DNA from: a virus
Taxonomy: Duplodnaviria > Heunggongvirae > Uroviricota > Caudoviricetes
Direction: 5' to 3' (one strand)
Length of the DNA: 4,795 nt
Virus record (IMG/VR): IMGVR_UViG_2645727555_000023
Under the pieces are notes generated by a model. It saw nothing but the letters and a program-made list of their open reading frames with translations. It did no database searches and was not told the DNA's origin. This document shows positions 271 through 4,795 of this stretch, in pieces (position 1 is the first letter of the stretch; each line of letters begins with the position of its first letter). Made by a program: the position numbers and the translations under genes.

Positions 271-2610
271 TTACTCTTCTACTGACTCGGTGGGGTTGTC
301 TTTTGCTCTTCGGTCGTCGATTGCCTGCAAAGCCGCAATGATTTCAGCCAGTGGCTTCTCCCGATACATCTCGACGATCTGTGATTTGGTGTATTTCTTG
401 TCACCAATTTCAACTCGCCCGCTGGCGTTCTTTGGCAGGTATCCTTCATCCAGCATGTACTCGACGAGCGATTCGATAACGTCGAGGCCACGAGTAGGAT
501 CGAAGTAGAATTTCCAGGTGCATTTGCCATACGGTGGTGCAACTTTGTTTTTGATGCATTCTGCGCCTACGTCTTGGCCGATCTTCTCTTTACCATCCTT
601 CATCACCGATGCACCAAGACGGATACGTACAGAAGCGTAGAACTTCGGTGAATCTCCACCTGGCGACGTAGTAGGGTCGCCAAACATTACACCGATTTTT
701 GTGCGAACCTGATTCAAGAAGATGATGCAGGCGTTGTATTTGCGTGCCCACAAAGCCAGAGTAGGGAAGTTCGCACTCGTCGCACGAGCCAGTGCCGTAT
801 TGTCGTTCATGTTTAGCTGATCTTTGTCTTTGGCTGTGCCTTCAGCCATCTTTTCGAACTTCTCGGCTTTGGAGTTCGGAACCATAGACGCAAGAGAGTC
901 AGCCACGATACAGATTGGTGCTGATTCGGGGATAAGCTCTTCATCACGAACCAATTTAAGTATTGTGCCGATCAACTCTACAGAGTCTTCGAAGGTATCT
1001 GGCTGCTTGTATACCCACTGACCGTCATCCTCATCTGCGTTCAGGCCATTGGCTACAGCCAGGCCAACGTCAAAACTGTTTTCATGATCGAGGAATACCG
1101 CCAGACCATCTTGTTTTTGAGCGGAGATCATCGCTGCTGTTGCAAGGAATGTGTTGTGGCTGATAATCCCGTTAGACCAGAAAGAGTGTGTTTCCGGCAT
1201 CGCTACGTCGAACGTTGGTGCTTCACCTTCCTCAATAGCCACGACTTCGTCGTAGAACAAGTTAGAGCCAATTACCGCTGCCAGTTGTGCAAACAGATGC
1301 TCGTTAAAACGATTCTTTCTGCCAATGAAGGAGACATAGATTTCTCGCAGTTTGTCTATTCCGACACGATCGCCGCGGCCAATAACGTGGTCTACCAGAG
1401 CGTAGTCTTCACGGGTGGTCTTGGTGAGCGACTCGTAGAGTGATTTCACTAAGCCGCTGATGTGCGGAACATAGCCTGAGTAAGTGCGGTCAAAACCAAT
1501 GTCCCGTTTGGTTGCCACTGATAAACGTGCCGGAGATTCGAAACCAATCGTTGACAGAAAAAGGTCGTAATTAGAGCCACTGAATGACAGCCGGTAATAT
1601 GTATTTTCATAACCCGCGACGTGTTTTTCAGAGATAGTTGACGTAATCCCCAGATTCAGGAGCATGAGGCGAATTTGCTGTAGCAGCAGCCCACTCGCGC
1701 TTACAACCTCAATGCAGCGACCATCATTGACGTGGCATTCCAGCTCAAAGTAGCCGCGAAGGAATGCAATTTGAGCCTCGCTATTGGCGCGACGCACACT
1801 CAACGGAACCTGCTTGCCAGCAGCTTTCTCATACTCCAGACCATATTCTTTAAAAAGCAGCGAACGCACCTCTTTGCTAAACAGCACATGGTCTTCCGAG
1901 CCGTTATGTTTTCTCGTAACTGGCATCTTGTCTGATACCAGCGAAATGAGGCGGTAGTACTCATCCTTGATGAAAGGATCTGTGTTAGAAAAATTCACTG
2001 AATTTTCAGAGGCCACGTATCCGTCAGCAATTAAATAGCCCATCAGTTTTGCGATATTGGCATCCAGGTGCTGATCGCCGAATTGATGTGTGCCAACCAT
2101 TGAAGGAATCGTGTCGCCTACACTGATTTTTTCAGCATGTCGCCAGACGACATTACCTAAGTCGTCAACCACACGGATTGGGTGACGGAACGTAGCCTCG
2201 ATATAACCGCCTGATGCCAGCTTAATACGCTTGAATTTGCGACGGTTGTTCCATGTCAGGTGTGAGGTCTTCTCTATCACGCCATTTTCATTGATGAGTC
2301 CAACGTTATGCTCTACATCGCGAGTAGTGCATGTCGCTTTGTACCCTTCAATCTCAAACAACTCTTTCACTGTTACCATTCCACGCTCCGTCAGCAGCAT
2401 GGTGTCTGCGGTAACACATTTCCCCGCGCTTGGAGGACCGAATACTTCGACGATACGACCACATGGGAAGCCGCCATCGTAACGACCAGAAATAGCTTTG
2501 TTTAACGGTGGAAAGCCTGTATCAATCCAATGAGTTACTTTCTGAATTTCGTCGTTGCTACCGATTTTCTTTTTCAGAGCAAGTGCCAGTGCGGATTTTC
2601 CTTTTGCCAT
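271..2610 (-). CDS. recA: RecA-family recombinase precursor (779 aa) containing a 422-aa intein; predicted spliced product 357 aa
   Basis: Exteins align to bacterial RecA hallmarks: N-extein GRIVEVFGPPSAGK + C-extein TFLATAAMI rebuilds Walker A GPPSAGKT (RecA GPESSGKT); Walker B-like ICIVADSLASMVP; L2-loop region FLNQVRTKIGVMFGDPTTSPGGDSPKFYASVR closely matches RecA [32 protein letters not shown]. ATG at 2610 is preceded by AAAAGGAG 7 nt upstream. Symbol denotes RecA family; a phage-encoded homolog is likely. Confidence 0.9.
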   Translation of the reverse strand: MAKGKSALALALKKKIGSNDEIQKVTHWIDTGFPPLNKAISGRYDGGFPCGRIVEVFGPPSAGKCVTADTMLLTERGMVTVKELFEIEGYKATCTTRDVEHNVGLINENGVIEKTSHLTWNNRRKFKRIKLASGGYIEATFRHPIRVVDDLGNVVWRHAEKISVGDTIPSMVGTHQFGDQHLDANIAKLMGYLIADGYVASENSVNFSNTDPFIKDEYYRLISLVSDKMPVTRKHNGSEDHVLFSKEVRSLLFKEYGLEYEKAAGKQVPLSVRRANSEAQIAFLRGYFELECHVNDGRCIEVVSASGLLLQQIRLMLLNLGITSTISEKHVAGYENTYYRLSFSGSNYDLFLSTIGFESPARLSVATKRDIGFDRTYSGYVPHISGLVKSLYESLTKTTREDYALVDHVIGRGDRVGIDKLREIYVSFIGRKNRFNEHLFAQLAAVIGSNLFYDEVVAIEEGEAPTFDVAMPETHSFWSNGIISHNTFLATAAMISAQKQDGLAVFLDHENSFDVGLAVANGLNADEDDGQWVYKQPDTFEDSVELIGTILKLVRDEELIPESAPICIVADSLASMVPNSKAEKFEKMAEGTAKDKDQLNMNDNTALARATSANFPTLALWARKYNACIIFLNQVRTKIGVMFGDPTTSPGGDSPKFYASVRIRLGASVMKDGKEKIGQDVGAECIKNKVAPPYGKCTWKFYFDPTRGLDVIESLVEYMLDEGYLPKNASGRVEIGDKKYTKSQIVEMYREKPLAEIIAALQAIDDRRAKDNPTESVEE
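1153..2418 (-). mobile_element. Intein (422 aa) with LAGLIDADG homing-endonuclease domain, inserted in the recombinase P-loop between Lys64 and Thr(+1)
   Basis: Starts with Cys (TGT at 2418-2416) in a block-A-like CVTADTMLLTERG. Block B TFRHPIRVV (TxxH). Two LAGLIDADG motifs: LMGYLIADG (2046-2020) and LRGYFELEC (1761-1735). Blocks F/G TFDVAMPETHSFWSNGIISHN end in His-Asn (AAC at 1155-1153) followed by Thr +1. Removing it restores a contiguous 357-aa RecA. Confidence 0.85.
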
Positions 2611-3823: not shown

Positions 3824-3838
3824 CGGTACATTCCTTCC

Positions 3839-3867
3839 AAAAAGTAAGGCGTCCGTAGACGCCTTAC
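3839..3867 (-). terminator. Rho-independent terminator or attenuator between the SSB-like gene and the exonuclease gene
   Basis: Minus strand, 17 nt after the SSB-like TAA stop: GTAAGGCGTC-TACG-GACGCCTTAC (10-bp stem, 3867-3844) followed by TTTTT (3843-3839), then the SD and GTG of the exonuclease. Stem arms AAGGCGTC/GACGCCTT are identical to those of the terminator at 246-266. Confidence 0.55.
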
Positions 3868-3883
3868 TGGTCACGTAATGGGA

Positions 3884-4651
3884 TTACAGAGAGTCCAGTT
3901 CTCTCAGTAGGTCATCCAGACCTTCATCTTCCGTCGCAGATGCGGTTGCTACAGATGTCGCTGCTACTGCTTCAGACTCTTTGACTGATACGGCAACGGC
4001 AGCGGAACTTGCTTCTGGTTTAAATTCAGTTTCAACGGCACGGAGGATTTCTTCATCAACCAGACTGGTTGGTTCAGAAGCTGGGGTGTGAGCGGTTGCT
4101 ACAGCAGTCGCACCCTCCGTATGACCAGTGACAGAGCCAAATCCAGGCAGTGCCGCGGCCGATGTTTTCGCGGTAGAGGAAATTGCTGGTGCAGATGCTG
4201 CGGCAGTTGGTGCAGCGATGCCAATCAGACGACCCATAGTGCGAACTGTCGACAGAAGACGAGTTTCATCAGCCTGATTTGCGTATGCGATCAGATCATG
4301 CTGGGTGTTCCAGAATTTATCTTCGATATCGCCTTTGTAGACTTTACGCTTAGGCGAGACGTCATATTTGGTATCGCGACCAGAACCAGTACGTTTAATC
4401 AGGAATGCGTAGCCTTCCTCTTTGCTCAGTGGATTGCCGATATCATCAGCGATGTCTTCGGTGATTGCTTTGCAGATATCATCGAATACAGTAGACGGCA
4501 GCTCGATTAACTGGCATTTCTCAGCATCTGCGAAATCCTCACGAGCAGAAAGAATGCCGTTGACCAGGTAGCGAGGAGTGGCACGCATTTGACCGATGCG
4601 TTCTTCCATTGCTTTGTTACCCTTGTGACGAGCGCGACCTTCCATAACCAT
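3884..4651 (-). CDS. Putative ssDNA-binding protein (gp32-like features), probably a 3' fragment of a gene disrupted by the adjacent IS element
   Basis: Long Ala/Ser/Thr-rich low-complexity linker ending in acidic tail EDEGLDDLLRELDSL, typical of SSB C-termini. The frame stays open upstream of the first ATG up to the IS boundary (4701) and encodes C-x8-C-x2-C (YICEQHTHGRACQLCEM), reminiscent of the T4 gp32 zinc site. No Shine-Dalgarno precedes ATG 4651 or 4645. Functional call is motif-level only. Confidence 0.5.
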   Translation of the reverse strand: MVMEGRARHKGNKAMEERIGQMRATPRYLVNGILSAREDFADAEKCQLIELPSTVFDDICKAITEDIADDIGNPLSKEEGYAFLIKRTGSGRDTKYDVSPKRKVYKGDIEDKFWNTQHDLIAYANQADETRLLSTVRTMGRLIGIAAPTAAASAPAISSTAKTSAAALPGFGSVTGHTEGATAVATAHTPASEPTSLVDEEILRAVETEFKPEASSAAVAVSVKESEAVAATSVATASATEDEGLDDLLRELDSL

Positions 4652-4701
4652 TTCGCATAGCTGACAAGCGCGACCGTGAGTATGTTGCTCACAAATATAA
4701 G

Positions 4702-4795
4702 TGAACCGCCCCGGGAATCCTGGAGACTAAACTTCCTGAGAAAGAGGTAAACAGGATGACTAAAAATACTCGTTTTTCCCCTGAAGTCCGTCAAC
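4702..4795 (+). mobile_element. Left end of an IS3-family insertion sequence (IS629/IS1203-like), continuing beyond the window
   Basis: Sequence begins TGAACCGCCCCGGG at 4702 (IS3-family termini start 5'-TG). It is followed by GAGG SD and an ATG at 4756 opening an ORF MTKNTRFSPEVRQ..., which matches from memory the N-terminus of IS629-group OrfA transposases. Exact IS identity is unverified. Confidence 0.7.
4756..4795 (+). CDS. IS3-family transposase OrfA, N-terminal 13 codons (partial, runs off window)
   Basis: ATG at 4756-4758 with GAGGT 7 nt upstream; translation MTKNTRFSPEVRQ. Recognition is from recalled IS629/IS1203 OrfA sequence. Confidence 0.7.
   Translation, partial: MTKNTRFSPEVRQ

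Follow-up and report, generated by a model that had tools for sequence, protein, structure and literature searches.

A known RecA intein of SSU5-like phage-plasmids with a probably active two-motif LAGLIDADG homing endonuclease

The DNA analysed here (the window) is a 4,795-nt stretch of the viral record IMGVR_UViG_2645727555_000023, in which an intein interrupts the gene for a RecA-family recombinase of an SSU5-like phage-plasmid. Sequence comparison, structure prediction and population data together suggest that the two-motif LAGLIDADG homing endonuclease of this intein is probably functional, or was so until very recently. An initial annotation of the window had noticed both motifs, called the second one non-canonical, and left two branches, an enzyme that may still be active in a mobile intein or a decaying endonuclease. 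The active and mobile branch is strongly favoured by homing signatures (transfer, co-conversion, occupancy and selection), but the unusual motif did not hold up as a warning sign. Overall, the element is an ordinary, already known and probably active homing intein.

The recA precursor is an open reading frame (ORF) of 779 aa at 271-2610 on the minus strand, which is the strand of every gene and gene part described below, with its stop codon at 271-273; it matched Pfam RecA (E=3e-36) and was 98-99% identical to the copies in Escherichia phage PhiR41_1/Cyrano and in E. coli plasmids. The intein (1153-2418) has 422 aa, corresponds to protein residues 65-486, begins with Cys1 and ends with His-Asn. 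It is absent in frame from orthologues and splits the Walker A loop after Lys and before Thr (K64/T487), with the bounds GPPSAGK|CVTAD...IISHN|TFLAT, where vertical bars mark the junctions. Because the intein-less orthologues of CMS-2020a and SSU5 are contiguous across the insertion point and read an ungapped GPPSAGK|TFLATAAM, the borders of the intein are exact to the residue. Two domain matches were obtained within it, to Pfam Intein_splicing (E=2e-11, 44 bits against a cutoff of 35.8) and to Pfam LAGLIDADG_3 (E=2e-17 over protein residues 279-356).

Topilina, Novikova, Stanger, Banavali & Belfort 2015 (Nucleic Acids Research 43:6631, PMC4513877) catalogue, for E. coli (strain MS 145-7 among others) and for Enterobacter, RecA inteins at an insertion point termed c2 (65-486), the same P-loop position as that of the archaeal RadA intein. 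The window intein shares with RecA c2 the host protein, the Walker A Lys|Thr point and residues 65-486, and it is 99.9% identical to the intein of the E. coli MS 145-7 plasmid. Given the same coordinates and this identity, the window intein is the same element as the catalogued RecA c2 intein and was therefore already known.

Translation of ORF 271-2610 reproduced exactly the positions previously assigned to the two endonuclease motifs, LMGYLIADG as motif 1 (2020-2046; protein residues 189-197, intein residues 125-133) and LRGYFELEC as motif 2 (1735-1761; protein residues 284-292, intein residues 220-228). Alignment against characterised LAGLIDADG enzymes, one of the checks proposed in the initial annotation, was run with profile hidden Markov models (HMMs) on solved structures, and it placed LRGYFELEC in register with IAGLFDAEG of PI-PfuI, LEGYFIGDG of PI-PkoII and INAYIVCDG of TliVMA. 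This register upheld the assignment of Glu to positions 6 and 8 and of Cys to position 9 of motif 2 (Cys228, codon 1737-1735). Position 8 is acidic in both motifs, as Asp132 in motif 1 (codon 2025-2023) and Glu227 in motif 2 (codon 1740-1738), both predicted to be catalytic, and counted along the chain these residues align with Asp149 and Glu250 of PI-PfuI, which are the published active-site pair of that enzyme. The assumption that the catalytic position tolerates Glu also has precedents, in the aligned Glu250 of PI-PfuI and in E117 of I-DmoI, a second case of Glu at this position whose E117A mutant entries were among the PDB matches found with Foldseek.

We then considered motif 2 against its own lineage. 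Word-indexed protein searches yielded only 13 relatives with the intein alone and 17 with an 8-sequence profile, too few for motif conservation, and motif counts were instead taken from the best 150 of the 1693 proteins recovered at E<1e-30 by an exhaustive profile search of cluster representatives. Among these best 150 proteins, 105 endonuclease domains were in the GK|C P-loop context, and 77 of the 105 had RecA hosts (mutual identity <=50%). In the RecA-hosted relatives, motif 2 position 8 was Glu in 61 and Asp in 11, and position 9 was Ser in 27, Cys and Gly in 21 each, Ala in 6 and Met in 2. Motif 2 is thus non-canonical against the textbook consensus, as first stated, but most members of the lineage have Glu followed by Cys, Ser or Ala, and motif 2 therefore provides no evidence of decay. 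The Glu-Cys ending is the lineage norm and not damage.

The acidic position 8 was retained in both motifs in 99 of the 105 P-loop-inserted relatives. Across 194 aligned domains (P0004-P0165), Asp at position 8 of motif 2 was followed by Gly in 77/87 cases and Glu by a residue other than Gly (Cys, Ser, Ala or Met) in 78/91, an association with Fisher P=3.5e-25 when computed with no phylogenetic correction. Motif 1 was free of such covariation, Gly being kept in all 41 of the 41 domains with Glu there. In the very active I-SceI, motif 1 (GIGLILGDA, checked in PDB 1r7m) carries Ala at position 9, so a residue other than Gly there is compatible with high activity. Relatives that have decayed looked different, with one or both motifs or half the domain gone (P0007, P0012 and P0013).

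Close inteins with the same Glu-Cys/Met motif 2 were also present in P0068, P0075, P0094, P0107, P0110, P0113, P0119, P0120, P0147 and others. Their hosts are ~1000-aa proteins, non-RecA by sequence, which have the intein in a P-loop of the form ..ATNGGK|C...HN|TE.., suggesting that the intein lineage may have moved between different P-loop ATPases. It is conceivable, though we consider it rather improbable, that the Glu plus Cys/Ser/Ala/Met ending, which has all but displaced Asp-Gly in P-loop-targeting inteins (78/91 against 10/87), defines a mechanistically distinct, asymmetric active site and is not a neutral variant; a thiol or hydroxyl beside the catalytic Glu might possibly influence the use of metal, the order in which the strands are cut (nick first) or how sensitive cleavage is to redox state. 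Were this so, the intein would be in an active sweep between phage-plasmids of E. coli and Klebsiella, and might be a tractable E. coli homing model.

Structure prediction, likewise suggested at the outset, gave a two-motif LAGLIDADG fold. An AlphaFold2 model built from eight family members had a mean predicted local distance difference test (pLDDT) score of 79.5 and a predicted template modelling score of 0.83, with the motif helices at residues 120-132 and 213-227 and helix-strand repeats after each motif, in agreement with the duplicated alpha-beta-beta-alpha-beta-beta-alpha fold of LAGLIDADG enzymes. Foldseek searches of the PDB with this model ranked the TliVMA intein first (E=5e-18, template modelling (TM) score 0.70), followed by PI-PfuI, PI-PkoII, PhoVMA, PI-SceI and I-DmoI, so that the top matches were endonuclease-bearing inteins; the probability was 1.00 for PI-PfuI, PI-PkoII, PI-SceI and the free-standing I-DmoI. 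Among these matches, TliVMA is an experimentally active endonuclease and PhoVMA is a degenerate one without the acidic residues (PMC8966425). The domain was indeed found to be an intact, double-motif LAGLIDADG endonuclease, as initially proposed. From the helix and strand pattern of the model, Foldseek and Pfam LAGLIDADG_3, its core was placed at intein residues ~111-300 (1519-2088), these borders being model-derived and approximate.

Selection on the endonuclease, another of the initially proposed checks (dN/dS of the domain), was evaluated as pN/pS, the ratio of non-synonymous to synonymous differences per site, between two intein haplotypes, and purifying selection was found. Over the whole intein, 26 synonymous and 13 non-synonymous differences gave a pN/pS of 0.15 (P=1e-8 against neutrality). 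In the endonuclease core, 10 synonymous and 3 non-synonymous differences gave a pN/pS of 0.09 (P=5.5e-5), an estimate that rests on 13 substitutions and speaks for the past only, a very recent inactivation being invisible to it. The N-terminal splicing part had an equal pN/pS of 0.09, and the helical accessory region was the least constrained part, at 0.39.

The distribution of the intein among diverged recA genes carried homing signatures. In Klebsiella phage vB_KpnS_p4727, the intein was 96.9% identical to that of the window, with a dS of 0.09; the exteins were 78-82% identical with a saturated dS of >1.9. The p4727 intein was identical to that of E. coli plasmid pNT1N28-108k at 1266/1266 nt, and the exteins of these two elements differed at 16.4% of sites (83.6% identical), a divergence at which ~207 differences would be expected in 1266 nt. 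Their identical tract ran from -9 to +8 around the intein, identity ending within 9 nt of each junction, and in independent lineages exchange breakpoints were located no more than 9 nt from either junction. All 7 of the 7 intein-containing alleles examined were full-length and free of stops, with identical motifs. In 5426 complete E. coli genomes, the full intein was present in 115 cases versus 129 with an uninterrupted junction, all on plasmids, corresponding to ~50% presence/absence polymorphism on near-identical backbones. Two partial E. coli matches (H139 and H140) were considered as mini-inteins and rejected, as they are truncations by insertion sequence (IS) elements. These comparisons show that the intein passed very recently between elements of E. 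coli and Klebsiella, and the junction breakpoints, the identical inteins in diverged exteins and the polymorphic occupancy form the pattern that would be expected of endonuclease-initiated gene conversion.

Mosaic inteins were also seen, that of pSTEC388_1 (L008) changing from Klebsiella type in its 5' part to window type in its 3' part and that of the HCP30S3 plasmid (L012) from window type to Klebsiella type. They indicate recombination or partial gene conversion within the intein as well as at its borders.

The flanks of the insertion were compared between occupied and empty alleles. In the window, the disrupted homing site consists of a left half, GGTCCTCCAAGCGCGGGGAAA (2419-2439), whose last 9 nt are common to all intein-containing alleles, and a right half, ACATTCCTTGCAACAGCA (1135-1152), whose first 8 nt are, such that the 7/7 occupied alleles, from three extein lineages, share the flanks GCGGGGAAA|ACATTCCT. 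The +3 base is A in all 7 of 7 occupied alleles (AAA|ACA) and G or C in the 6/6 empty alleles examined (AAA|ACG or AAA|ACC). Of the natural empty sites, the closest is that of E. coli MMC-J-0050, which reads GGTCCTCCAAGCGCGGGGAAA|ACGTTCCTTGCAACAGCA and is one base off the reconstructed target (+3, ACG not ACA); +3 is also the only difference between it and the window near the junction. Further natural empty sites are of the O104 type (...GCGGGGAAA|ACCTTTTTGGCAACGG), the CMS-2020a type (...AGTGCAGGGAAA|ACGTTCC) and the SSU5 type (...GCCGGTAAA|ACCTTTTTGG), and empty sites other than the closest one have up to five synonymous differences within 12 nt. In the N-extein, the window differs from CMS-2020a at -10 and -7 only. 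These differences between the window and its closest empty relatives represent short co-conversion tracts. The flank sequences given in the initial annotation were exact, and the uninterrupted recA P-loop sequence that it named as the target does exist in nature; the quoted sequence, however, is the co-converted donor flank, which differs at +3, and the recA concerned is the phage-plasmid recombinase gene rather than a chromosomal recA.

One further intein-less allele, in the E. coli elppa10 plasmid (NZ_CP083480.1, recA gene 1501-2570; L010), carries a 4-bp deletion at ~nt 196-199 that removes TTTT of AAA|ACCTTTTTGG, 3-7 nt from the insertion point, and frameshifts recA. Loss of the 4-nt overhang after a LAGLIDADG cut would yield a deletion of this type, and we considered it as a cleavage scar. 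Since just one record across the E. coli and plasmid collections has it, and its position is within a T5 run, it may be an assembly error or slippage, and this anecdote was therefore not used as evidence.

The sequence of events we propose is as follows. The precursor would be translated and the intein would splice out, leaving RecA with a restored GPPSAGKT loop and a free intein. In a cell that also houses an intein-less phage-plasmid, the free intein, or the precursor, would then recognise the uninterrupted P-loop sequence in recA of that phage-plasmid and cut it with Asp132 of motif 1 and Glu227 of motif 2 as the metal-binding pair, and repair from the occupied copy would convert the empty allele, carrying along ~8-12 nt of donor flank. 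In this scheme we infer splicing, DNA cleavage, the cut position and the metal ligands, whereas the data directly show the anatomy, the fold, the register of the motifs and their conservation across the family, the purifying selection, the polymorphic occupancy and the transfer of an identical intein between diverged exteins with breakpoints at the junctions.

Several points weigh against an active endonuclease. Gly at motif 2 position 9, a usual LAGLIDADG feature, is absent here and replaced by Cys; pLDDT falls below 50 at residues 133-142, just past motif 1; and the limits of the core selection estimate and of the Fisher test, given above, count on the same side. In the literature searched, we found no test of cleavage or splicing of the RecA c2 intein, and expression of the window copy is uncertain because it is located in an IS-bracketed phage-plasmid remnant. 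In line with these points, the endonuclease might already be inactive, with the intein persisting since precise loss is rare and moving passively by homologous recombination among co-resident phage-plasmids. The missing Gly would normally cap the motif 2 helix, recombination is frequent here, as the mosaic inteins (STEC388, HCP30S3) and mosaic exteins attest, and the host gene is itself a recombinase. We nevertheless regard inactivity as unlikely. A Glu-Cys or Glu-Ser majority among the 77 RecA-hosted relatives is unexpected of a disabling change, the core is as constrained as the splicing domain, and relatives that did decay have lost whole motifs. Random recombination would not bring the breakpoints of independent lineages so near (within 9 nt) to both junctions, and because the breakpoints fall repeatedly at both junctions, passive recombination does not fit. 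With a core pN/pS of 0.09, 7/7 alleles intact and a motif 2 of the family norm, the decaying endonuclease envisaged at first found no support.

The endonuclease fold could also be kept for a non-nuclease role, as a splicing scaffold or as a DNA-binding module that makes RecA maturation conditional, and it is true that conditional switching has been demonstrated or suggested for inteins of P-loop recombinases, among them Pho RadA and Mtu RecA, for which such a role was proposed (PMC4513877), and that purifying selection alone does not reveal the function selected; yet this is highly improbable as the explanation, since it leaves unexplained how exteins diverged by 16% come to hold the same intein DNA with breakpoints precisely at the junctions, the ~50% polymorphism on near-identical backbones and the retention of both metal-binding acidic residues in 99/105 relatives, and a non-nuclease role and homing are not mutually exclusive.

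The splicing apparatus around the endonuclease was complete in its residues, comprising Cys1, TFRH of block B, FDVAM of block F, the terminal His-Asn and the +1 Thr. The N-extein (64 aa, 2419-2610), delimited by translation and orthologue comparison, ends with GPPSAGK of the Walker A loop, and the C-extein (293 aa, 274-1152) begins with the +1 Thr (ACA, 1152-1150) of GK|T. The N-terminal splicing (HINT) part, intein residues 1-110 (2089-2418), is beta-rich in the model and aligns to the Mxe GyrA, DnaB and RadA mini-inteins; it contains the Cys1 codon (2418-2416) and block B TFRH (intein residues 76-79, 2193-2182). A helical accessory region of the model, at intein residues ~301-385 (1264-1518), separates the endonuclease core from the C-terminal splicing part (1153-1263), which includes blocks F and G, aligns to the C-termini of the DnaB, CDC21 and GyrA inteins, and contains FDVAM (1212-1198) and SHN (intein residues 420-422, 1161-1153). 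The element is accordingly classed, from its sequence, as a class-1 intein with a HINT fold in the Walker A loop of a RecA-type recombinase, and it is predicted to splice. GC content was uninformative, at 0.48 for the intein versus 0.46-0.49 for the exteins.

Among known systems, the best PDB match, the TliVMA intein (PDB 7qss), which has been shown to cleave its own homing site (Beyer et al. 2022, PMC8966425), resembles the window intein in structure (TM 0.70), sequence (HMM E=1e-20), P-loop ATPase host, size (429 aa) and helical accessory domains, but it is 20% identical, resides in an archaeal V-ATPase, and ends motif 2 with Asp-Gly (INAYIVCDG). PI-PfuI, the Pyrococcus furiosus ribonucleotide reductase intein (PDB 1dq3), is likewise an intein-borne LAGLIDADG enzyme with two motifs, the first contributing Asp and the second Glu, and its IAGLFDAEG aligns column for column with LRGYFELEC (Foldseek E=2e-16); unlike the window intein, with which it is 15% identical, it is archaeal, has another host protein, ends motif 2 with Gly and possesses an extra stirrup domain. 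The Pyrococcus horikoshii RadA intein (c1) occupies the homologous Lys|Thr point of a recombinase P-loop and its splicing domains align weakly, whereas it is a mini-intein without an endonuclease, and the literature judges it an independent invasion. PI-MtuI, the Mycobacterium tuberculosis RecA intein, also has a RecA host, a nested endonuclease and a detectably related splicing domain (E=2e-3), but differs in insertion site (a, residue ~252), intein lineage and its chromosomal host gene.

The RecA c2 intein has been catalogued as a bacterial RecA intein by Topilina et al. 2015, and the searched parts of that text contain no mention of phage, LAGLIDADG or endonuclease activity (PMC4513877); NCBI PGAP already names the gene "LAGLIDADG family homing endonuclease". 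In the literature searched, no paper was found that notes the phage-plasmid context or links SSU5 or phage-plasmids to an intein or homing endonuclease. What is added here is the evidence against a degenerate endonuclease, the phage-plasmid context, the population occupancy, the homing signatures and the natural targets. A false alarm is also removed, in that a motif departing from the textbook LAGLIDADG consensus can be the norm of its lineage, and endonuclease decay should therefore not be called from motif-matching alone. SSU5-like phage-plasmids are the home of the "first E. coli intein", which they carry at ~50% occupancy. This occupancy, together with the very recent exchange between E. 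coli and Klebsiella elements, offers a handy natural setting in which the homing and co-conversion of an intein can be studied in a host with easy genetics, and the natural empty sites above supply targets for cleavage assays. The practical value is modest, the element in itself being an ordinary homing intein.

The window is a ~4.6-kb SSU5-like phage-plasmid piece with 98% identity to Escherichia phages PhiR41_1 and Cyrano and 99% to ~110-kb E. coli plasmids, and encodes a gp32-like single-strand DNA-binding protein (SSB), a 5'-3' exonuclease, a conserved 90-aa ORF and the 779-aa RecA-family recombinase. Because all matches are on plasmids or phages and the neighbours are the SSB and exonuclease genes, a chromosomal recA was ruled out; the intein resides in a recombinase gene belonging to an SSU5-like phage-plasmid. 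The first ~94 nt (1-94) match the end of an IS21-family element (IS21/IS100kyp, beside istB), which truncates a small membrane-protein gene downstream of recA (ORF ending near 88, minus strand). The last ~95 nt (4701-4795) match the end of IS629 (IS3 family), whose insertion leaves the gp32-like SSB gene (3884-4651) without its initial ~70 codons, as a 255-aa ORF against 342 aa in phage Cyrano. With IS matches at both ends, the window is therefore a 4.6-kb phage-plasmid remnant between two IS elements; neither IS junction was present in the E. coli or plasmid collections. The 90-aa ORF (2613-2885), between the exonuclease gene and recA, is kept in SSU5 (SSU5_059) and E. coli plasmids, gave no Pfam match, and has relatives named "hypothetical protein". 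Two GC-rich hairpins followed by T runs, read by eye on the minus strand, lie directly 3' of recA (aaggcgtccacaggacgcctttttt, ~240-262) and directly 3' of the SSB gene (aaggcgtctacggacgccttacttttt, ~3835-3866), and both look like intrinsic terminators.

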